Below, piece by piece: positions 8,653 to 37,480 of a DNA stretch of 64,000 bases. Location: sequence record MZ502379.1; one strand, given 5' to 3'. Position 1 is the first letter of the stretch. Each line of letters starts with the position of its first letter. The position numbers were made by a program, and so were the translations under genes. The notes below the pieces were generated by a model, which did not search any database, was not told the origin of the DNA, and worked only from the letters and a program-made list of their open reading frames with translations. This DNA is from Escherichia phage vB_EcoM_Shinka.

Positions 8653-8976
8653 TTAGTCTTCTATGATATCTCTATCATATCCAAGTGAAATGAGAGTTTC
8701 TTTGAAGTGTTTAATGTTCTTTTGTCTGGAATCATTAATGAAAATGACTGGATAACGAATGTTAAGAGATGTGAATCCAGCGCGTTTAGCAAGAGATACA
8801 ATCAGTTGACGATCATACTCAATATTACCATTATTAGTAAGAACTTTATAAAAAGTAAAAGGAGCATTGAGCTCCTTTAGAAGTTTTGTAACTGATTGAC
8901 ATCCAGGACAACGACCTACTTCATCTGGAATTCCATAGACTTCAATCTTATTCTTTAAGTTCGAGTTTTGTTCCAC
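8653..8976 (-). CDS. Glutaredoxin/NrdH-like redoxin; start uncertain (probably non-ATG)
   Basis: C-terminal ~100 residues show beta-strand IEVYG followed by CPGC redox motif and a thioredoxin-fold pattern; the hydrophobic N-terminal extension in the ORF track overlaps the upstream gene, so a GTG near 8976 is the likely start. Confidence 0.5.
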   Translation of the reverse strand: MEQNSNLKNKIEVYGIPDEVGRCPGCQSVTKLLKELNAPFTFYKVLTNNGNIEYDRQLIVSLAKRAGFTSLNIRYPVIFINDSRQKNIKHFKETLISLGYDRDIIED

Positions 8977-9259
8977 GAGAAATAATTCCTTGGTAAGCCC
9001 AATAAGGAGGATTAACAGAATCCTCACCAGAGTTTTCTTCAGGAAAATAAACCTGGATAACGAAGCCGGATTCATCAAAGGTAAAATAAACCGTAGGCAG
9101 TTCACCTAACAAATCGGCACGAGCGTTGATTTCTTCGAGGTCTTGTTCACGTCCAGCCCAGAAGCTTGGGTTCAGACTACATTCATAGAAATAATAGTCA
9201 TTACCGAACATATCAAAACCATTCCAACTCTCTACTACATACCGCTCAAAACTAATCAT
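8948..9259 (-). CDS. Hypothetical protein (103 aa, acidic)
   Basis: ORF between nrdG and the nrdH-like gene. Confidence 0.5.
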   Translation of the reverse strand: MISFERYVVESWNGFDMFGNDYYFYECSLNPSFWAGREQDLEEINARADLLGELPTVYFTFDESGFVIQVYFPEENSGEDSVNPPYWAYQGIISRGTKLELKE

Positions 9260-9261
9260 AA

Positions 9262-9477
9262 TTAAGCCTTTTTATCAAGAACCGCATTCAGCTTGTTAGT
9301 AATTTTATCCAGACGCTCATTGAACTCACTAGAAGATAAGCCCTTTTCTGGAGAAATTAAACTAATCACGAAAAATACAACAATAAAAGGAATAAGAAAA
9401 ATAGCTCCAACTGCCATAAACAGAAAGAACGTTACAGTTGTAAGAAAATCAGCTAAACCTTTACGAAATTTATACAT
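9262..9477 (-). CDS. Small membrane protein (71 aa, one TM helix)
   Basis: Hydrophobic stretch FLTTVTFFLFMAVGAIFLIPFIVVFFVISLI. Confidence 0.5.
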   Translation of the reverse strand: MYKFRKGLADFLTTVTFFLFMAVGAIFLIPFIVVFFVISLISPEKGLSSSEFNERLDKITNKLNAVLDKKA

Positions 9478-27204: not shown

Positions 27205-27783
27205 TTAGGAATTACGGGCTGCATTAGCAACGGCATACGCGTACTGAACATTAGCGTCTTTAAACGTACCTTTAGAGGTATCTAGTTCTGCCTTAAAGCC
27301 GCCTTTAGCCATAACATCGGCAAATTCTTTACGGAAAGCCATTGCATCAAGACCTTTCCATGATGATTTATGCTTGGCAAATTCAAGACCAGCGTAGTTG
27401 ACAGCCTTAGCTAATTTATTATCAATAACCCATTTACCGGCTTTAGGCACAAACACCGGGCCTTTCTGTTTGGAGAATAGTTTTAAATTCCAGCGACGAA
27501 GGTCACCGTCAGCTTTAACAAAAGCTGCGTCCAAGTTACTAGCAACAACATCTTGAATATGGCCAAATTTAAGCCCATCAACTTCAATATTTAGATCGGT
27601 ACGCCAGCGAAGTCCTTCCCAAGCGAAGGCTTTAAAGTCGGAAGCCTTTGTAGCTAAGTACCGTTCAATAGGAGCTGTTTTAGGGTCAAAGCCGTTTCCA
27701 GATCGGTATGTCCACTCATCTTTGTTAATGCCTTTGGCCTTTACTACAGAAGCTTCGGCAATAAATTCTTGATATGTTTTCAT
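27205..27783 (-). CDS. ipIII: Internal protein III (capsid-packaged, 192 aa)
   Basis: N-terminal capsid targeting sequence MKTYQEFIAEA with LxE cleavage site and close match to recalled T4 IPIII; own early promoter and RBS. Confidence 0.75.
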   Translation of the reverse strand: MKTYQEFIAEASVVKAKGINKDEWTYRSGNGFDPKTAPIERYLATKASDFKAFAWEGLRWRTDLNIEVDGLKFGHIQDVVASNLDAAFVKADGDLRRWNLKLFSKQKGPVFVPKAGKWVIDNKLAKAVNYAGLEFAKHKSSWKGLDAMAFRKEFADVMAKGGFKAELDTSKGTFKDANVQYAYAVANAARNS

Positions 27784-27811
27784 GTGTTTCCTTGTTTGTT
27801 TTGATAGAGTA

Positions 27812-27841
27812 ATTATACCATATTAATACTTAAGCGTAAAC
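27812..27841 (-). promoter_or_regulatory. Early promoter upstream of ipIII
   Basis: Minus strand GTTTAC, 18 nt, TATAAT, then AAGGA RBS and the ipIII ATG. Confidence 0.55.
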
Positions 27842-27844
27842 CGT

Positions 27845-28105
27845 TTAAGCTTTACCGCCAGAAATAATTCCGAAGTTGTTAAAATCATATCCAATATCGT
27901 CAACATCTACTTTAGGACTTGCTACAACATAAGCAATTTCACTACGTTTTGCACAGGTGTTGATTTCTTTACCATCGCCACCTAAGAAAGAATACCCATT
28001 ACGTTTTAATGAGCCAAAGTCTTCCGCATCACCAATGAAAGCTTTAACTTTAAATTTAGAACCTTTGGCATCTGCTTCAACGATAAATTCTTGATACATT
28101 TTCAT
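27845..28105 (-). CDS. ipII: Internal protein II-like (86 aa)
   Basis: N-terminal MKMYQEFIVEA capsid targeting sequence. Confidence 0.6.
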   Translation of the reverse strand: MKMYQEFIVEADAKGSKFKVKAFIGDAEDFGSLKRNGYSFLGGDGKEINTCAKRSEIAYVVASPKVDVDDIGYDFNNFGIISGGKA

Positions 28106-28274
28106 TTTTCCTTAGTAAATTGATTTACCAAAGTATTTGTACCAAGTCGGACGTTGAGCAATTTTTTCATCTAAGCGTGCTTGACTTATCGCAATGGACG
28201 CTTCGGACGGGACATAATTTCCTCCAAGTAGTTGATGAATGTATAGTATCAAAACCCTTGGAGGAAGTAAACAA

Positions 28275-29515
<1,241 letters not shown>

Positions 29516-29534
<19 letters not shown>

Positions 29535-30004
29535 TCAGTGATAAAGTTATTTAAATTTTGAACGTATTTCTTTTCATCAAAAATCTTTTGTTGTCTGCGT
29601 AGCCGCCATGGCATTTCAATGAACGTGTACCATATCCCAGATAATATTGCTGCTGTAAAAATATTAACAAGTATGGTTAAAAGAATCCAATCTCCTATTC
29701 TGTCCATTGGATTTTTTATAAAAAAGTAAAATACGAATGATGTCACAGGAAGACTAATAATATACCACAGAATCATAATTTTATCTGTGAACCAATCAGC
29801 GTTCGTTAACTTAGCGCGACCATTATGAATACACACGAATTTATCATCTGTTATAATAGATGGCTTAGCTGCTTGATATCCCATTCTAAACTCCCTAATC
29901 AACAAATTTTTCATATCTTCGGAACAACCATTCCAGTCAACTCTATCAACTGAAATGCCATCATCCCCATCATCTAAATCATACCAGCGAGTTTTTAAAA
30001 TCAT
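29516..30004 (-). CDS. Membrane protein (162 aa)
   Basis: Two hydrophobic TM segments (IMILWYIISLPVTSFVFYFFI, ILLTILVNIFTAAILSGIWYTFI). Confidence 0.5.
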
Positions 30005-30363
30005 TTAATTTTCCTACAATCACTCACAAACTCTTCCATTGATTCTTTTTCAATATAAGACATGTAGCTATTATATTCCTTTAATTGTATTTTGTAATCC
30101 TTTTTTCTTTGCCAATTTATTTTAAAATTATCATAATGAAAATATAACATTGTACCAAAGAATGAAAATAATGAAATAATTTTAGTATAGTGAAGTTCAC
30201 TCCAAACTTCTATTATATTTACTGTGCCGTCAATGTTTAAAATAAGACAGTCAATTAACAATCCAAAAAGACTACCCGCAAGAGCTGCAGCCAACGCCAC
30301 AGCAAAAATTAAAAATGACTCAGGAAGAGAATATTTGACTTTATTTAGTTTTGGCTTTTGCAT
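30001..30363 (-). CDS. Membrane protein (120 aa)
   Basis: Hydrophobic segments FLIFAVALAAALAGSLFGLLIDCLIL and IISLFSFFGTMLYF. Confidence 0.5.
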   Translation of the reverse strand: MQKPKLNKVKYSLPESFLIFAVALAAALAGSLFGLLIDCLILNIDGTVNIIEVWSELHYTKIISLFSFFGTMLYFHYDNFKINWQRKKDYKIQLKEYNSYMSYIEKESMEEFVSDCRKIK

Positions 30364-30758
30364 CGTGATTCCTTAACAAATTTCATAATTTCATCAAATT
30401 CATACGCAGCAAGTTTAAGCTGGTGTTCCTTTTTAATCTTTTTACACTGTGCTTTCCAATCACGTACGCGTTTACGATAATGTCTTCCTTGATACCAGTA
30501 TCCTACCCAATTTACAGGTACTAATAAAAATGGAACTATCATTGGAAGAATTAATGTTGACGCAAATATTATATTAGATTCAATATCAGTCATAACATCT
30601 ATAACTATTCCAACCCCCAGTAGAATTACAAATGATACAGCTATTACAGGACCTATTAATACATCAGTAGAAATTAGCTGGCGCTTTAATTCATACTTCA
30701 ACGGTTTACTTGGAAGATACATTGATGGCTTTGACATATTCTCTACATTCCTTAACAA
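30345..30758 (-). CDS. Membrane protein (137 aa)
   Basis: Hydrophobic segments IGPVIAVSFVILLGVGIVIDV and IIFASTLILPMIVPFLLVPV. Confidence 0.5.
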   Translation of the reverse strand: MLRNVENMSKPSMYLPSKPLKYELKRQLISTDVLIGPVIAVSFVILLGVGIVIDVMTDIESNIIFASTLILPMIVPFLLVPVNWVGYWYQGRHYRKRVRDWKAQCKKIKKEHQLKLAAYEFDEIMKFVKESRCKSQN

Positions 30759-31314
30759 ATTTTTCTAATAATAAATCGCTTTCAAAATTGGGATTTTCTA
30801 CGAATTTATCAAAAAGATCATCAACAATATTCAAGATATTCCTTTTACTAAGAATACGTTTATTTTCATGCTTCGTTTCAGAATCAACTATAAGAGTAAA
30901 GAAATATTTCTTGCCCTGAAATTTTACAGTAGTATCAATATAGAATAAATTTGACTTTTGTAAATTACGTTTAAACCATGCGTCACTTAAACTATAAACA
31001 CCGAGATAATCAAAATCGTCGTTTAAATAACATACTGTCCATTCAGGAGAAATGAAATCAGTAAATTCAACATCAAAATCACACGTCAATGAATGAATTG
31101 ATTCAATACTGTTAATAAGTATTCCAGGACGTATTAAAGACTTTTTACCTCTGGAAAATCTTCCAGAAAGACTTTCATTAGTTTCATATGAAGAACCCCA
31201 ATAATAATTACGCCCTTCTGCCATACGTTTAAGAGCATTTAGTAATTGGTCTGGAACATCAACTTGTCTTTGGAACTCTTCAAACATTGAATTGAAATCA
31301 CTTTGCATTTTCAT
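30706..31314 (-). CDS. Hypothetical protein (202 aa)
   Basis: ORF upstream of the three membrane-protein genes. Confidence 0.5.
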   Translation of the reverse strand: MKMQSDFNSMFEEFQRQVDVPDQLLNALKRMAEGRNYYWGSSYETNESLSGRFSRGKKSLIRPGILINSIESIHSLTCDFDVEFTDFISPEWTVCYLNDDFDYLGVYSLSDAWFKRNLQKSNLFYIDTTVKFQGKKYFFTLIVDSETKHENKRILSKRNILNIVDDLFDKFVENPNFESDLLLEKFVKECREYVKAINVSSK

Positions 31315-31332
31315 TCCTATTTACTCTAAGTA

Positions 31333-31349
31333 ATAGGGGCCCGAAGCCC
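31333..31349 (-). terminator. GC hairpin with CGAA/UUCG loop (weak terminator candidate)
   Basis: aggggc-ccgaa-gcccct palindrome between ORFs; no clear U-run. Confidence 0.3.
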
Positions 31350-31356
31350 CTTATCA

Positions 31357-31950
31357 TTATTTCAGAGAATTAATATATTCCTGAACATCGGCAGAGGTAG
31401 TTTCAACCCCAGAAATATTGCCATTAAAGGTTTCAACTCGGGCAAGAGTATCTTCAATATCAACTTTAGTCAGTGCTGCAATTTCAACTACATCATCAGC
31501 AGTACTAATTCCAAGGGCATTCGCAGCACGAGTTTCACGGATATATTCCAATTTAACTGCAAGTTCTTGGCGAGCATCATCTAACTCAACTACTTTCTTG
31601 GCGATTTCAATTCGCATTTCAGCATACCCATCAGCTTTAGTAGTCAACTGCTCAGCTGTTCGACGATATAGCAAGCCGAGTTTAGCATGCATTGTTACAT
31701 CTTGACCTTCGGAAAGAAGCTTGCGAATTTCACGCTCTTTTGATTCGGCCTGCTTATTCTTTTCGACAATAAGTTCACGAATACGCTTTTCTTCATTAAT
31801 AGATTTAACAGAAGCAGTTTTTAGGTCTTTAATTTTATCAAGCAGTTTTGCTGCTGCGGCAGTATACTGTTCTTCAACAGATAGATTTTTAGCCATAGCA
31901 GAACCAAGTTTAGTGCGAATAAACTCAACAATTTTCTTCAGTGTGTTCAT
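31357..31950 (-). CDS. Coiled-coil protein, possibly PspA/IM30-like (197 aa)
   Basis: Predominantly helical charged sequence with long heptad-like stretches; family assignment is pattern-level only. Confidence 0.45.
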
Positions 31951-32025
31951 AGTAGTTCCTTAGGTTGATTAAGATTTAAAATCCATGAGAGTATTATACC
32001 CTGTTATTTGAGGGATGTAAACATT

Positions 32026-32424
32026 TTATTTCATTTTTGCGAGGCAGATTTCATTGGCTTCCCATTGAGCTTGCTTAATAATAGCTTTGGATACAGGAAC
32101 CTTTTGACCATAAGTTTTTGACGTTGAGAGAACAATATATTTGTTTGCCTCATTATGCCAACCCCATGATTTTTCGCCATGAGTACCTTTAATTACGGCC
32201 GACACTTCAACAGAGCATCCATCAGAACTAATCTTGGTGTCTACAATCCATTCATTTCTCTCGACAGCTTCATTTTCCGATCTCATTTTTTCTTCATACA
32301 CGGCGGCCCAATCAGTTTTTGTCAAGCTTAAACTAAGAGCTTTCTCTAATTCTTTGGCAGCCTTTTGTTGTTCGGGTGTTAATGAATTATATAACTCTCG
32401 CATTTCTTTATCTTCAATATTCAT
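32026..32424 (-). CDS. Hypothetical protein (132 aa)
   Basis: ATG at 32424 preceded by GAGGAG RBS and an early promoter with stem-loop. Confidence 0.5.
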   Translation of the reverse strand: MNIEDKEMRELYNSLTPEQQKAAKELEKALSLSLTKTDWAAVYEEKMRSENEAVERNEWIVDTKISSDGCSVEVSAVIKGTHGEKSWGWHNEANKYIVLSTSKTYGQKVPVSKAIIKQAQWEANEICLAKMK

Positions 32425-32449
32425 TATGTTCTCCTCAAGTTATAGGCTC

Positions 32450-32479
32450 ATAATATCTCAATCATGAGCCTATGTAAAC
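32450..32479 (-). promoter_or_regulatory. Early promoter with flanking stem-loop (PeSL-type module)
   Basis: Minus strand GTTTACA, 17 nt, TATTAT; inverted repeat taggctcat/atgagccta brackets the -10 region. Confidence 0.55.
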
Positions 32480-32743
32480 TTATTTCATATTATTGAAATA
32501 TTCTTCTGCGATTTCATCGTTATCATGGTAAACTTTAGAAGACAGTTTAACATAACCTTCAGCAGTGAACATGTTAATCACAACCTTTACAGTATACCAC
32601 TGACCATCTTCATTACCCATTACTGCGTAAGTTTCAAACATCGGATGATCAGGACCGATAACTTTAATATCATTCACTGTACGACCAAAATCTTCTGAAA
32701 CACATTTCATAAAGAAGTTGAACAGTTCGCCGTAATTATCCAT
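32480..32743 (-). CDS. Hypothetical small acidic protein (about 87 aa from internal ATG)
   Basis: The ORF track start lies inside the promoter; the ATG at 32743 is preceded by GGAG RBS. Confidence 0.45.
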   Translation of the reverse strand: MDNYGELFNFFMKCVSEDFGRTVNDIKVIGPDHPMFETYAVMGNEDGQWYTVKVVINMFTAEGYVKLSSKVYHDNDEIAEEYFNNMK

Positions 32744-32786
32744 TTCATTCTCCAAGTTGTTTTCTGTATCAGTAGTTGATAGTTGT

Positions 32787-32816
32787 ATAGTACCATGGAA
32801 GGACAAGGATGTAAAC
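32787..32816 (-). promoter_or_regulatory. T4-type early promoter (repeated promoter module)
   Basis: Minus strand GTTTACA, 17 nt, TACTAT, then TATCAACTAC. Confidence 0.55.
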
Positions 32817-32950
32817 CGTTTTGTGAAAAAATTTTTTAAAAAGTTTTAGGGAATTCTAGGGTAGGGAGGGGCAATTAAAAGATAGGATAATATATTATAA
32901 AGGGTAGAAACTAAATGATGCCTAGAGAGGCCCGGAAAGGCCTAGATACC

Positions 32951-32980
32951 AAAAAGCCCCAACCTTTTGGTCGGGGCTAA
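32951..32980 (-). terminator. Rho-independent terminator (copy A of a 30-nt repeat)
   Basis: Minus-strand RNA forms gccccgacc/ggttggggc stem with G-U pair and is followed by UUUUU; 29/30 identical to 33506-33535. Confidence 0.5.
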
Positions 32981-32985
32981 GAATG

Positions 32986-33459
32986 TTATTTGATTTGTTT
33001 AGCAGACCAAATGCGGTCTTTAATAATTTTTTGGATGTCTTCAACATACTCAAGAGAGTGAGCATGTGGGTTATCTTTGAAACTATAAGCACGAGCTAAC
33101 TTTTGACCTTCAGTTTTGATTACTAAAAGCTCTTTAAGGATAGCTTCATATCTGGAGATAATTCCTTTAACGATATTTTTCTCTTGTGTGACTTTAGGAT
33201 CTGCTTTAGGAGCAGGTTTACCTGAAGCCTTTGCAAAAGCAGCTCCAGTAGCAACTAAACTTTTCCAAGCCATACTAACTGCATTCCCTGTAAATCCTTC
33301 GGCTTTCATATCACGAGCAAATTGGAATCGTGATTCATCGGAAGCATCTTTATAGGAATATTTACCCGCGGCAATGGCTGCTTTTGCGACAGCTTGAATT
33401 TCGGTGCTAGATGCTTCATTTAACACCGCTTCATTTAAAAATTGAGCATATGATTTCAT
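32986..33459 (-). CDS. Internal-protein-like capsid-targeted protein (157 aa)
   Basis: N-terminus MKSYAQFLNEA fits the capsid targeting sequence with LNE cleavage site; TATAAATA late promoter about 35 nt upstream; flanked by near-identical terminators. Confidence 0.55.
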   Translation of the reverse strand: MKSYAQFLNEAVLNEASSTEIQAVAKAAIAAGKYSYKDASDESRFQFARDMKAEGFTGNAVSMAWKSLVATGAAFAKASGKPAPKADPKVTQEKNIVKGIISRYEAILKELLVIKTEGQKLARAYSFKDNPHAHSLEYVEDIQKIIKDRIWSAKQIK

Positions 33460-33495
33460 CTTATTTCCTGTTTTAATTCGTGGTTTTAATATACT

Positions 33496-33503
33496 TATTT
33501 ATA
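33496..33503 (-). promoter_or_regulatory. Late promoter (TATAAATA) upstream of the IP-like gene
   Basis: Plus strand tatttata at 33496-33503, i.e. TATAAATA on the minus strand. Confidence 0.45.
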
Positions 33504-33505
33504 CT

Positions 33506-33535
33506 AAAAAGCCCCAACCTTTCGGTCGGGGCTAA
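33506..33535 (-). terminator. Rho-independent terminator (copy B of the 30-nt repeat), end of the tRNA/stable-RNA transcript
   Basis: aaaaagccccaacctttcggtcggggctaa; hairpin plus U-run on the minus strand. Confidence 0.5.
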
Positions 33536-33584
33536 GCCTTGCGGCAACCTTGTCGGGGTTCCACCTGCTAAGGCAAGTGTTTGT

Positions 33585-33676
33585 ACGAAACGCCGGGATT
33601 CGAACCCGGTTATTAAGTAGTTGACGCTACTCAATATTTTTAAAAGGCCATATCTCGACCATATCCGAACGTTCCG
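33585..33676 (-). ncRNA. tRNA-like structured RNA candidate (possible small stable RNA)
   Basis: Perfect T-arm (ccggg-attcgaa-cccgg) with a 7-bp acceptor-like stem closed by cgttccg at 33670-33676, but no canonical D or anticodon arm; lies distal to tRNA-Arg. Confidence 0.25.
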
Positions 33677-33850
33677 TCAAAAACGCTACTCGGCTTATGG
33701 CAAAGATATTTCCTCGAATCGATAATTCGGTGCGCCGTTTCTGCTGTGATATAAGGGGGCATTAACAAAAACATAAAGATTTATTAATGCCAGTCCTTAA
33801 ACAGGGAACATCAGTCCGACGACTTGCCGGTAGCGACCCGGCTTCTTGTC

Positions 33851-33926
33851 TGGTCGAGGCAGTAGGGATCGAACCTACGACCCAGGACTTAGAAGGTCCT
33901 TGCTCTTCCTTCTGAGCTATGCCTCG
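33851..33926 (-). tRNA. tRNA-Arg (anticodon UCU)
   Basis: Manual fold: acceptor cgaggca/tgcctcg, T-arm gtagg-gatcgaa-cctac, anticodon loop CUUCUAA; CCA encoded. Confidence 0.8.
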
Positions 33927-33930
33927 TATT

Positions 33931-34005
33931 TGGCGGACGTGATAGGATTCGAACCTATAACCAATCGCTTAACAGGCGATCGCTCTGCCATTGAGCTACA
34001 CATCC
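33931..34005 (-). tRNA. tRNA-Asn (anticodon GUU)
   Basis: Manual fold: GGATGTG acceptor, D-arm GCTC-AATGGCA-GAGC, anticodon loop CUGUUAA, T-arm ATAGG-TTCGAAT-CCTAT, CCA encoded. Confidence 0.75.
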
Positions 34006-34009
34006 AAAT

Positions 34010-34096
34010 TGGTGGGGAGTGATGGAGTCGAACCACCCGAGTCGCAATGACAATGGATTTACAGTCCACACCGCTACCTCTACGGGATAACTCCCC
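34010..34096 (-). tRNA. tRNA-Tyr (anticodon GUA), class II with long variable arm
   Basis: 87 nt; acceptor GGGGAGT, anticodon arm GTGGA-CUGUAAA-TCCAT, long variable hairpin, T-arm with TTCGACT loop, CCA encoded. Confidence 0.7.
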
Positions 34097-34105
34097 AAAT
34101 TAATT

Positions 34106-34180
34106 TGGTGGCCCTGGGTAGAATTGAACCACCATCTGGCGATTATGAGTCGCTTGCTTGAACCTTCCAGCTACAGGGCC
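34106..34180 (-). tRNA. tRNA with CAU anticodon (Ile2-type or Met)
   Basis: Acceptor ggccctg/cagggcc, anticodon loop CUCAUAA, T-loop TTCAATT; Ile versus Met cannot be decided from sequence alone. Confidence 0.7.
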
Positions 34181-34181
34181 T

Positions 34182-34257
34182 TGGTGCTGATTGACGGAAT
34201 CGAACCGCCGACGTCCTCATTACAAGTGAGGTGCTCTACCTACTGAGCTAAATCAGC
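34182..34257 (-). tRNA. tRNA-Thr (anticodon UGU)
   Basis: Acceptor gctgatt/aatcagc, anticodon stem cctca/tgagg with loop CUUGUAA, D-stem gctc/gagc. Confidence 0.8.
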
Positions 34258-34262
34258 AAAAC

Positions 34263-34352
34263 TGGCGGAGGCGATAGGATTTGAACCTATGAGTCGCCGG
34301 AGCGACTGCCGGTTTTCAAGACCGGTGCATTAAACCACTCTGCCACGCCTCC
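34263..34352 (-). tRNA. tRNA-Ser (anticodon UGA), class II
   Basis: 90 nt with long variable arm; anticodon stem ccggt/accgg, loop CUUGAAA; acceptor ggaggcg/cgcctcc. Confidence 0.8.
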
Positions 34353-34354
34353 AG

Positions 34355-34428
34355 TCTCCATACAAGGATTTGAACCTTGGACCTCCTGATCCCAAATCAG
34401 GCGCTCTACCAAACTGAGCTACACGGAG
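34355..34428 (-). tRNA. tRNA-Pro (anticodon UGG)
   Basis: Anticodon stem cctga/tcagg with loop UUUGGGA; D-arm GCTCAGTTTGGTAGAGC; CCA not encoded. Confidence 0.75.
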
Positions 34429-34438
34429 TAAATTAAAT

Positions 34439-34512
<74 letters not shown>

Positions 34513-34517
34513 AAATT

Positions 34518-34604
34518 TGGTGCGAGAAGTGGGACTCGAACCCACAAGGAAATCATTCCGCAGCATTTTAAGTGCTGTGCCTTTACCAATTTGACCATTC
34601 TCGC
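34518..34604 (-). tRNA. tRNA-Leu (anticodon UAA), class II
   Basis: 87 nt; acceptor gcgagaa/ttctcgc, T-arm gtggg-actcgaa-cccac, anticodon loop CUUAAAA, long variable arm. Confidence 0.8.
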
Positions 34605-34605
34605 G

Positions 34606-34678
34606 CTGGGAATAAAGGACTCGAACCTTTGCATCCTGGAATCAAAATCCAGTGCCTTACCAACTTGGCTAATTCCCA
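34606..34678 (-). tRNA. tRNA-Gln (anticodon UUG)
   Basis: Acceptor tgggaat/attccca, anticodon stem ctgga/tccag with loop UUUUGAU; CCA not encoded. Confidence 0.75.
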
Positions 34679-34775
34679 ATTATTAACAAAGGCTCTCAAG
34701 CAAGAACCCTTGATGATAGAGGGTATTAATCAGTGCGGTATGAGTTAATAATAACAAATAATTCTTAAAGCATAT

Positions 34776-35063
34776 TTACCATTTATGATAATACATATTT
34801 ACGATGCATTCAAGACCCAAAGGATTCTTGAAAATATCATATTTAAGAGGACCTTTTTCTGTTTCAATAAAGAAATCAAAATTTACTGTATTAAATTTAC
34901 GGTCTTCCTTCACTAATTTAACTTGAGAAGATGAACGGTCAACATAAACCTTTTCAACTTCAAAACATGTTAAAATGCCATAATCATCAATCAAGGCTTT
35001 AGCTGCTTCTTGATCATATTTATATCCATTTTCAATGGACGATACTTTAGCATAAAGAATCAT
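34776..35063 (-). CDS. Hypothetical protein (95 aa)
   Basis: ORF between the tRNA array and ipI. Confidence 0.45.
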   Translation of the reverse strand: MILYAKVSSIENGYKYDQEAAKALIDDYGILTCFEVEKVYVDRSSSQVKLVKEDRKFNTVNFDFFIETEKGPLKYDIFKNPLGLECIVNMYYHKW

Positions 35064-35065
35064 TA

Positions 35066-35446
35066 TTAGCCTTCATCAACAATAGTATGAGTATGGGCAT
35101 TTACAATTTGCCACCAATCAAAGCGATTGGAACCATACATTGGTTTGTTTTCATTTTCTTTGATAATGTCACGGAGTTCATCTTCGGTAGCGGCTTTCGC
35201 GATTAAATCAGCATATCCACCACGAGGATAATAATTATCACCTGCAAAAAGTAAAAAGTTTGGTTTAATGTTATTGAACTCTTCAATAGTAATAACTTTT
35301 CCTGTTGGTTGAACAATCTCTACATATTTATATCCCAATTTTTGAGCAGCATCTACTGCTTCAAGCAAAGTATCATGAGCCCATCCAATTTGACAACCTG
35401 GCTTTTCAGATGGATTAGCCTGATAATCCGCATACACTTTGTACAT
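35066..35446 (-). CDS. Hypothetical protein (about 126 aa from internal ATG)
   Basis: ATG at 35446 (MYKVYADYQ...) preceded by AAGGTG RBS; the ORF track start lies inside the upstream gene. Confidence 0.5.
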   Translation of the reverse strand: MYKVYADYQANPSEKPGCQIGWAHDTLLEAVDAAQKLGYKYVEIVQPTGKVITIEEFNNIKPNFLLFAGDNYYPRGGYADLIAKAATEDELRDIIKENENKPMYGSNRFDWWQIVNAHTHTIVDEG

Positions 35447-35447
35447 T

Positions 35448-35633
35448 CTATTCACCTTTAGAAATTTTATCCATAACGATAGCAATTAAACCAATTAAAA
35501 ATGCTACTACAAGTGAAAACACATTTTCTGCTGTAGTCAATAATCCGCATATAAATCCAACAAACATTGAAAAACTAAAAGCAGAAGCAGAAATTGCAAT
35601 AGCAACATTTCGAATTAATTCACAACGTTTCAT
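35448..35633 (-). CDS. Small membrane protein (61 aa)
   Basis: Two hydrophobic stretches; ATG at 35633 preceded by GAGGAG RBS and an early promoter. Confidence 0.45.
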   Translation of the reverse strand: MKRCELIRNVAIAISASAFSFSMFVGFICGLLTTAENVFSLVVAFLIGLIAIVMDKISKGE

Positions 35634-35663
35634 TTTATTCTCCTCGGTAGTTGATAGGGTAAT

Positions 35664-35692
35664 AGTATCACAACTAAAACCCTATGTAAACA
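35664..35692 (-). promoter_or_regulatory. Early promoter with stem-loop (PeSL-type module)
   Basis: Minus strand GTTTACA, 16 nt, TACTAT; inverted repeat atagggt/accctat brackets the -10; followed by TATCAACTAC and RBS. Confidence 0.55.
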
Positions 35693-35709
35693 ACTTTGTG
35701 AAATATTTA

Positions 35710-35997
35710 TTACAAAAGATTTTTAGCAATAATCTTGAGATGTGCCGCAGAAATGTGTTTAGCTTTAAACAACGCAGTTTCTTCAGCAGGAGAGATAACG
35801 ATTGTAGCACCATCCTTTTTAGCAGACCACCCATCACCTAGGTAAACAGTACCTTTGATTTCTTCGCCATCAACCAGACTAATCATTGGTTTACCTTCTC
35901 GTCCTTTATTTGCTTTAATAACTTCAGAAGTAAGAGTAGCCTCGGTAATGGTAGAAACCGGGGTAGTTGTAGAAGTAAATTCTTTGAAAGTTTTCAT
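35710..35997 (-). CDS. ipI: Internal protein I (95 aa)
   Basis: MKTFKEFTSTTTPVSTITEA... capsid targeting sequence with ITE cleavage site; matches recalled T4 IPI; position next to 57B. Confidence 0.8.
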   Translation of the reverse strand: MKTFKEFTSTTTPVSTITEATLTSEVIKANKGREGKPMISLVDGEEIKGTVYLGDGWSAKKDGATIVISPAEETALFKAKHISAAHLKIIAKNLL

Positions 35998-36027
35998 TTT
36001 ATTTTCCTAATTAATTTTGATGAGATA

Positions 36028-36057
36028 ATAGTATCACTACCTCATCAACGTGTAAAC
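36028..36057 (-). promoter_or_regulatory. Early promoter with stem-loop upstream of ipI
   Basis: Minus strand GTTTACA, 17 nt, TACTAT; inverted repeat tgatgag/ctcatca around the -10; AGGA RBS. Confidence 0.55.
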
Positions 36058-36069
36058 AACTATGTGAAA

Positions 36070-36766
<697 letters not shown>

Positions 36767-36767
<1 letters not shown>

Positions 36768-37480
36768 TATAGTACCTTTAGTGTATTTTTAATTTTAGAA
36801 AAAAGTTCTTCAAGAGAACCATCGTTTGTAATTACTAAATCGCCATCACGAATTGGCAATCCAGCTTCTGTAATATGAGTATCATTGGATTTTTGACCAG
36901 GACGAACTACATGAATTACTGTAGCACCCATCGCCCTAGCCGCATCCATTTCATGATCTTGACGAGTATCAGGAACGATATAATAATCATAACCTGAGTT
37001 AAATTTATCAAGATAATCTAAAGCAAATAATTTTACCCAATACATGCGGTCGAAGTTATTAACAATCAAATCCGTACCTAGGGCTTGCATCAGACGACGG
37101 ACTGACCATTGATCTTCAATATTATTTATAACGTCAGCAATCTTGTTAAATGCTACGAAATTAACTGCGTCATCAAAAACAAACACACCTTTAATTGGGC
37201 TTTTACTATTAAGATAGCAAAATGCTTGTTCCATAATCGTGATTACTTCTGATTTAGTCAGATTTAAATTAGTCTCACGATCATAGTCAATTCCTTCAAA
37301 CTCTTTACGAGTTAAGCAAGGATAGTCAGTGTTTGCTGCAAATACTCCCCATGCATAAGCCAATGCATCCTTAATAGGACCAGCAAGTTGGTATTTAACT
37401 GCAGAATAATTGCTCATGATAAAATCAGCAGTAGTATCTTTTCCACTACGCTTTACACCGCTTAAAAAGATTAGTTTCAT
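36767..37480 (-). CDS. 1: Deoxynucleoside monophosphate kinase gp1 (about 237 aa)
   Basis: From the ATG at 37480: MKLIFLSGVKRSGKDT (P-loop) preceded by GAGGAG RBS; the ORF track extension upstream is TTG-initiated. Confidence 0.8.

Follow-up and report, generated by a model that had tools for sequence, protein, structure and literature searches.

The stretch analysed here, 64,000 nucleotides of Escherichia phage vB_EcoM_Shinka (sequence record MZ502379.1; the whole of it is called the window below), carries on its minus strand a gene of 157 codons set between two almost identical hairpins at the end of the tRNA/rnaD/rnaC cluster. An earlier reading of the bare sequence, the original prediction, had singled out this open reading frame (ORF), which begins MKSYAQFLNEA; it is present at 32986-33459. 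The unit to which it belongs is 555 bp long and consists of one copy of the terminator hairpin, the octamer TATAAATA, a ribosome-binding site and the gene. Related phages have no such unit, the same one (cassette A), another (cassette B), A and B together, or a third (cassette C) at exactly one point, and the junctions lie inside the hairpin or its T-run. The features of the locus are as follows.

33584..33722, minus strand: rnaC (species 1 RNA), last gene of the tRNA/rnaD/rnaC cluster, whose terminator is duplicated (RB33 annotation, transferred via a 98.9% match)
33501..33536, minus strand: repeat copy 1 (HP1), CTTAGCCCCGACCGAAAGGTTGGGGCTTTTTAGTAT, with a stem-loop at 33510-33533 followed by a U-run; predicted resident terminator of the tRNA/rnaC cluster and putative left crossover point
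33496..33503, minus strand: TATAAATA, which matches the T4 late-promoter consensus; it shares 3 nt with the end of repeat copy 1 and lies 2 nt after the U-run
33464..33469, minus strand: Shine-Dalgarno-like AGGAAA, 4 nt before the ATG (from sequence)
32986..33459, minus strand: cassette A gene, 157 amino acids (aa) beginning MKSYAQFLNEAVLNEA (ORF, substitution pattern, leader motif and a homologue in phage fD1 detected in virion preparations using liquid chromatography-tandem mass spectrometry, LC-MS/MS)
33430..33459, minus strand: codons 1-10, a propeptide MKSYAQFLNE resembling a capsid-targeting sequence (CTS) and ending in L-N-E, a predicted gp21 cleavage site (motif comparison)
32946..32981, minus strand: repeat copy 2 (HP1'), CTTAGCCCCGACCAAAAGGTTGGGGCTTTTTGGTAT, with a stem-loop at 32955-32978 followed by a U-run; predicted cassette terminator and putative right crossover point
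32787..32815, minus strand: T4-early-type promoter of e.8 (TTTACA-17-TACTAT with TG), part of the conserved right flank outside the cassette and identical in cassette-less T4
32480..32743, minus strand: e.8 homologue, the downstream context gene (RB33/T4 annotation)

Gene names in the window were carried over from the RB33 and T4 annotations, and the resulting minus-strand order (57B, ipI, tRNA.4-.2, ten tRNAs, rnaD, rnaC, the 157-aa ORF, e.8, onward to e) places the ORF between rnaC, the last stable-RNA gene (~33584-33722), and e.8. The region matches 654 phage records, nearly all of them T-even phages of E. coli, Shigella and Yersinia, with Hafnia phage IsaacDaniel (99.6%) and RB32/RB33 (98.9%) at the top. 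Judged by these matches, the window is from an RB32/RB33-like Tequatrovirus.

The hairpins had first been described as two 30-nt repeats differing at one position. These cores (33506-33535 and 32951-32980) do differ only once, in the loop (G versus A), and the similarity extends to 36 nt each, with 34 of the 36 positions identical and the copies 555 nt apart. No further copy occurs in the 64 kb at up to three mismatches, and 100 dinucleotide shuffles yielded none. In minus-strand RNA each repeat forms a 10-bp stem with seven GC pairs and one G-U pair, a loop of four nucleotides, GAAA in the first copy and AAAA in the second, and a U5 tail; the folding energies are -20.3 kcal/mol (z -3.8) and -19.5 kcal/mol (z -3.4). 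Plus-strand transcripts are weaker, at -16.0 and -16.7 kcal/mol, an A-C mismatch opening the stem; the strand asymmetry foreseen in the original prediction is thus borne out. With a GC-rich stem-loop and a U-run on the transcribed strand, HP1 and HP1' are predicted intrinsic (rho-independent) terminators, and they are the two best terminator-like sites within 30000-37000. The related claim that the structure is selected on the strand of the gene stands in part: the Tequatrovirus stem variants GA, AG and AA opposite UU all pair on gene-strand RNA, whereas Mosigvirus copies have two U-U mismatches there and still fold at -14 to -16 kcal/mol, so that selection on that portion of the stem is not absolute. 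An origin of HP1 and HP1' as independent, convergent terminators is ruled out by identity that also takes in the loop and unpaired flanking bases (CTTAG..., ...GTAT). Equally ruled out is a dispersed repeat common to the classical internal protein (IP) loci: the window has two copies, and the IP loci have early-promoter stem-loops instead. Rfam, searched at E<=1 over 32700-34000, returned only tRNAs and noise, with no match for the hairpins.

The upstream hairpin lies 51-77 nt downstream of rnaC and is kept in every relative, at an identical offset in T4, RB33, ime09, IME340, RB69, ST0, VR7 and others. Because HP1 is thus the resident terminator and not the cassette's own, the cassette comprises one repeat, the promoter and the gene, which gives 555 bp; duplication of the terminator means that the RNA-gene cluster and the cassette both end in the same hairpin. 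The idea of a movable module with its own late promoter and duplicated terminators is accordingly upheld as to presence, absence and replacement at the hairpin, but not as to the ownership of the upstream copy.

Other variants of the hairpin were noted. A degenerate half-copy (CCCCGACAAGGTTG; 33545-33558, minus strand) lies in the spacer between rnaC and its terminator, is kept in T4 and is possibly the remnant of an older duplication. In phage Ec3-ASingh, ~50-75 nt past the rnaC 3' end, the empty-site hairpin has a reverse-complemented loop and a perfectly paired stem (GCCCCAACCTTTCGGTTGGGGC); it rests on one 'UNVERIFIED' record, and its form is what one would see had recombination between the two arms of the stem inverted the loop. 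A near-identical hairpin (GCCCCGGCCGAAAGGTTGGGGCTTTTT) also occurs in unrelated viral contigs (L018, L019, L023, L024 and ~15 other IMG/VR contigs, several of ~38 kb), in a context that differs from this locus but is mutually conserved, and could represent convergent terminators or a shared element.

The states of the site were read from 18 annotated and 42 IMG/VR loci, with the conserved 3' end of rnaC (...GGCGTTTCGTA) as the anchor for aligning 16 loci. When T4 is aligned to the window and RB33, the rnaC flank and the e.8 flank are both shared, a single hairpin stands between them in T4, and the 555-bp gap starts and ends in the repeat. Sf24, RB9 and Ec3-ASingh share this single-hairpin, gene-less junction between the same flanks, and T2L gives the same 146-nt empty-site match. 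Presence and absence therefore break exactly in the repeat across T-even genomes, as the original prediction had expected; the contrary case that it had named, repeats embedded in a longer and always occupied region, is countered by the empty sites of these five phages. An invariant GGGGCTTTTT begins 68 nt past the rnaC 3' end and is followed by variable continuations.

Empty site (T4, Sf24, RB9, Ec3-ASingh): GGTATCTAGG...
Cassette A: (A/G)GTATAAATA...
Cassette B: AGTTTGAATCAC..., a gene of 187 aa beginning MKTYAEFLTEA, ending in a different hairpin, CCCTATCTAAATGATAGGG, then CTTTTTGGTATCTAGG
Cassette C (Mosigviruses ST0, HX01): TGTATAAATA..., a gene of 208 aa beginning MYTFNEFLAETEVITEA
Gaprivervirus VR7: a gene of non-IP type, preceded by an early promoter

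Cassette A stands alone in the window, RB33 and SYGD1, and cassette B alone in IME340, RB69, ESh27 and, by match only, RB14. A followed by B is found in ime09, fPS-90, L030, L037 and L051 (several of these being IMG/VR genomes), and C in ST0, HX01 and L053. At least 80% of the query is covered by 463 of the 654 matching records for cassette A (~70%) and by 165 records for cassette B. At the same point after the rnaC terminator, the IMG/VR genome L022 (IMGVR_UViG_2706795408_000001, ~8684-9400, minus orientation) holds TATAAATA, a gene for a predicted membrane protein of 184 aa and a hairpin of its own, which means that the site accepts non-IP late cassettes too; the matching empty site is that of the VR7-type genomes (L010, which is VR7, with L021 and L035 for comparison), with the direct repeat GGGCTTTTTTATA. 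In RB69, cassette B (locus L007, 1621-2183) contains two overlapping ORFs (149c and 148c) where relatives have the single 187-aa gene, and has probably become a pseudogene through a frameshift.

T-even phages recombine very readily, and the same patchiness might come from a single ancient insertion or deletion, or a very small number of them, followed by ordinary homologous recombination in the long conserved flanks (rnaC and e.8), with the hairpins acting merely as terminators. Consistent with this, both flanks are highly conserved, even between genera, and cassette A occupies the same site in Tequatrovirus and Mosigvirus at ~77% identity, as expected from ancestral presence and later loss. 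The positions of the crossovers argue against it. RB69, a Mosigvirus, has a Mosigvirus-type 5' arm (CCCCTTCC) yet its cassette B shares 94.7% identity with that of Tequatrovirus, set against a difference of ~23% between the cassettes A of the two genera; this mixture confines one crossover to ~20 nt of loop, 3' arm and T-run, that is, to the 3' half of the hairpin. The stem markers swap between the two copies, the GA/AG marker of the 5' arm lying on the downstream copy in RB33 and SYGD1 and on the upstream copy in L058. In the downstream flank, ~20 nt away, three haplotypes (CCGGGCC, CCTTGTC and C[TC][GA]GACC) are each found both with and without a cassette. In addition, the exact point after the T-run is used by no fewer than four inserts that are unrelated or highly divergent, namely A, B, C and the membrane-protein gene of L022. 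Together, the RB69 crossover, the marker swaps and the haplotype mixing indicate repeated events at or beside the hairpin, and we regard a history of ancient indels as unlikely, although it is the best of the alternatives.

Expression of the cassette can be read from the element that follows HP1. A late-promoter motif had been noted about 35 nt upstream of the ATG; the distance from TATAAATA to the ATG (33459) is 36 nt. The octamer directly follows the T-run in RB33, ime09, fPS-90, SYGD1 and L037 and in cassette C of ST0/HX01. Its motif, distance and conservation agree with those of T4 late promoters, and we take it as a predicted promoter of this class. The annotation of fPS-90 already marks the site as a 'predicted late promoter', and in fPS-90 and several other genomes the order 'terminator, late promoter, terminator' is annotated around the 157-aa gene. 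A search for sigma-70/early-type promoters between HP1 and the ATG found none, and no promoter follows repeat copy 2 for ~130 nt.

Substitutions between the window ORF and its Mosigvirus homologue number 23, 20 and 67 at codon positions 1, 2 and 3 (48 synonymous versus 31 non-synonymous codons), and those relative to ime09 number 2, 3 and 17; by this pattern the ORF is a real gene under purifying selection. Its product is basic (pI 9.5). The AlphaFold (AF2) model is all-helical (pLDDT 73), with two parts joined by a Lys/Pro/Ala-rich linker. Homologues fall into 14 clusters, none of which has a name and every one of which comes from T-even-type phages, and the PHROGs match is phrog_2280, of 'unknown function'. 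The gene is annotated as 'hypothetical', and no record examined names it an internal protein. A Pfam search returned sub-threshold noise only, Foldseek found nothing in the PDB below E=0.98 (ferritin-like helical noise), and in BFVD it recovered only the protein's own family.

The start of the protein resembles that of T4 internal proteins. The leader MKSYAQFLNEA (residues 1-11) aligns with the propeptide of T4 IPII/IPIII, MKTYQEFIAEA. Experiments have shown which residues matter in the CTS of IPIII, positions 4 and 7 chiefly for targeting and positions 8 and 10 for processing (review of Black's work, PMC9026906), and the gp21 protease cleaves after L/I-x-E (PMC9026906). All four determinants fit in the 157-aa ORF (Y4, F7, L8 and E10), which agrees at motif level with the capsid-targeting-like start and LNE site proposed earlier. 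Two gp21-type motifs are present at that level, L8-N9-E10 before A11 and a second, L13-N14-E15 before A16; the protein reads AVLNEASSTEIQ... from A11 and SSTEIQAVAK... from A16. In a six-frame translation of the whole window, the relaxed pattern M[KY]x[YF]x[EQ]F was found five times against 0.14 expected, and all five occurrences are ORF starts, namely ipI, three ORFs downstream of e and the 157-aa ORF. For Yersinia phage fD1, whose purified virions were analysed by LC-MS/MS, a homologue with three substitutions, Gp140, appears among the particle-associated proteins ('PPAP'; PMC8309999 Table S3). No proteomics is given in the paper on fPS-90.

In our reading of the locus, the tRNA/rnaD/rnaC cluster of T-even phages ends in an intrinsic terminator, and an optional late-gene cassette is inserted in that terminator; we place the probability of this account, with the expression, packaging and exchange it predicts, at about 0.7. 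The upstream hairpin would stop early and middle transcripts of the tRNA cluster, the late promoter 2 nt after the U-run would make the gene late-only, and the downstream hairpin would insulate the early gene e.8. Made late, the 157-aa protein would be directed into the prohead core by its 10-residue leader and trimmed by gp21 after E10 (and/or E15); as one more internal protein it would travel in the head and be injected along with the DNA. Cassettes would be gained, lost and replaced by recombination between short direct repeats, of 36 nt for A and of only GGGCTTTTT plus 2-3 nt for B and the others. Such exchange may take the form of deletion or unequal exchange within one genome, or of a crossover between co-infecting phages in the shared hairpin. 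As for function, Ip1, Ip2 and Ip3 are injected and each inhibit a different GmrSD enzyme of type IV restriction, and the other proteins of 'the two Ip loci', as Silas et al. 2025 call them, are expected to be inhibitors too (PMC12373910). By analogy with Ip1-3, the 157-aa protein is probably an inhibitor of a host defence.

Several points weigh against this account. The haplotype mixing within ~55 nt proves no stimulation of exchange by the hairpin, because T-even phages recombine so freely. In Mosigvirus cassette A the octamer is degenerate (AATAAATA), and TATAAATA alone is not rare in this AT-rich window (17 found versus 10.4 expected), so that its role as a promoter is supported by position and conservation. 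The 157-aa protein has neither sequence nor structural similarity to characterised proteins in Pfam, PHROGs or the PDB and BFVD searched with Foldseek. Its late transcription, cleavage and injection are themselves predictions from sequence. Finally, the particle-associated list of fD1 is broad: out of 277 gene products it takes in 113-137, among them thymidine kinase, DenV and NudE (PMC8309999); given this breadth, the listing of Gp140 proves expression (and co-purification) and supports packaging weakly, without amounting to encapsidation.

Some of the same points would suit a truly late gene with a product other than an injected internal protein. In that case the leader would be a relic or serve another role, and the protein would act in the infected cell, for instance in head assembly, or be only loosely associated with the virion. 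Cleavage and injection are predicted only, the fD1 list includes many non-structural proteins, and the locus and its flanking elements differ from those of the classical IP loci; IPIII itself affects head morphogenesis (PMC9026906). The leader, however, retains all four targeting and processing residues and is conserved in A, B and C while the mature parts diverge, and predicted late-only expression together with a basic pI fits a passenger of the prohead core. We consider this alternative slightly less probable than ancient indels. An actively mobile cassette, moving as an excised circle or by co-conversion from a nearby site of the SegB homing endonuclease in the tRNA cluster, is highly improbable: the direct repeats would permit excision of a 555-bp circle, mini-circles of promoter-early stem-loop (PeSL) cassettes have been detected in RB49/phi1 (PMC2839356) and segB lies ~0.5 kb upstream in T4 and RB33, but the cassette carries no recombinase or nuclease and its state does not track segB (T4 has segB and an empty site, RB33 has segB and cassette A, and the window has cassette A and no segB).

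An optional cassette at the rnaC terminator has close parallels. According to later summaries (PMC2839356, PMC12373910), Repoila et al. 1994 (EMBO J 13:4181) found that IP genes at two loci share a leader of ~11 residues and that conserved regulatory flanks may mediate their shuffling. Gene shuffling via conserved flanks is a known T-even pattern, extended since to PeSL cassettes, and the rnaC-e.8 site is a new example of it. As at the T-even IP loci, small non-essential genes share only their N-terminal leader, and their number, order and identity vary between close relatives. Cassette A, however, lies between rnaC and e.8, whereas the classical loci are 57B-tRNA.4 (35710-35997 in the window) and the region downstream of e (27205-28556). 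Its flank is a GC hairpin and U-run fused to a late promoter, in contrast to the early-promoter/AT-rich stem-loop repeats of the classical IP genes in the window. The proposed fit with the hyperplastic IP loci thus extends to the logic of shuffling but not to the place or its elements, this being a third site with a GC hairpin and a late promoter instead.

At the classical loci of the window, ipI (35710-35997, minus strand) is bracketed by two 54-nt early promoters with an embedded AT-rich stem-loop (35651-35704 and 36017-36070; 76% identical). Members of this family also stand at 32776-32829 and 32439-32492, before e.8 and the next gene, as a classical IP-flank or PeSL-like element. Downstream of the lysozyme gene e, at the ipII/ipIII locus, three CTS-bearing ORFs (27205-27783, 27845-28105 and 28275-28556, minus strand) are preceded by early promoters, and one of their leaders shares the doubled L-x-E with the 157-aa ORF.

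In the PeSL cassettes of T4-type phages (Arbiol et al. 2010, PMC2839356; Comeau et al. 2014, PMC4122927), as here, a repeated terminator and promoter motif flanks optional ORFs and marks the exact boundaries of indels and replacements. The promoter at cassette A is of the late TATAAATA type rather than sigma-70-like and early, and the 64-kb window has two hairpin copies as against a dispersed PeSL family; late promoters are not mentioned in either of the two PeSL papers. With T4 IPI, IPII and IPIII, the 157-aa protein shares the leader MK(T/S)Y.(E/Q)F(I/L).E followed beyond the cleavage point by A, a small and basic product, and a non-essential, patchily distributed gene; it differs in a mature part without similarity of sequence or fold and in expression that appears late-only. 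Deletions associated with GGGC/GCCC in T4 hyperplastic regions were reported by Mosig et al. 1998, as cited in PMC2839356. The junctions of B, C and L022 likewise share only GGGC(T)n plus 2-3 nt, within GCCCC...GGGGC inverted repeats, but they are natural polymorphisms, whereas those of Mosig were laboratory deletions.

The cassettes appear related to one another. BLASTP aligns A with B through the leader only, as does profile comparison, while profiles link B with C (96.8%, E 2.5e-10, 166 columns) and A with C (93%, E 3e-7, 161 columns). All three families keep the leader but have diverged in their mature parts. On this evidence a shared ancestry, followed by strong divergence and exchange of domains, is likely, and no firmer than likely because the A-C and B-C alignments are shallow and the K/P/A linker is of low complexity. 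Chimera-like proteins were seen in Yersinia phage fHe-Yen9-01 (gene 153) and Klebsiella phage KP01 (P0010/P0011) and in gene 154 of fHe-Yen9-01 (P0043), with an A-like N-domain and a C-terminus bearing the TPDLY motif of cassette C; in fHe-Yen9-01, A-like and C-like genes are adjacent by locus-tag numbering.

A wider proposal, which we offer tentatively and hold to be rather doubtful, is that the rnaC-e.8 terminator is a third, unrecognised IP locus of the Tevenvirinae. Its A, B, C and chimeric proteins would form a divergent CTS-bearing superfamily of injected proteins, each directed against a different host defence (e.g. further GmrSD/type IV variants), and the terminator and late promoter would act as a recombination linker, the late counterpart of the early PeSL. 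As IP candidates, the locus and the protein family appear new to the literature consulted, in which Repoila et al. 1994 is represented here by later summaries. The site adds IP candidates that T4 lacks and that carry the label hypothetical in all annotations, and the proteins of cassettes A, B and C are cheaply testable as putative determinants of host range or anti-defence, for example in phage-therapy isolates. With its states of none, A, B, A and B, or C, it also offers a clean natural example of gene exchange at a terminator hairpin and extends the idea of a 'regulatory cassette as recombination linker' to late promoters.

Two observations concern the cluster upstream. The tRNA cluster of the window (33851-34678) has ten tRNA genes, including those for Asn, Tyr and a tRNA with the anticodon CAU, and lacks the segB homing-endonuclease gene; T4 and RB33, by contrast, have eight tRNAs, with segB inserted before tRNA-Arg. 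Just upstream of the rnaC 3' end (position 617 of the ime09 locus and 1452 of the RB69 locus), a 'hypothetical protein' of ~115 aa of the RB69ORF150c type is annotated in several GenBank records (L003, 6-356; L004, 11-361; L007, 847-1191; and similar). In T4, RB33 and T2L the corresponding position is taken by rnaD and the 5' portion of rnaC, and the ORF is probably a spurious call.

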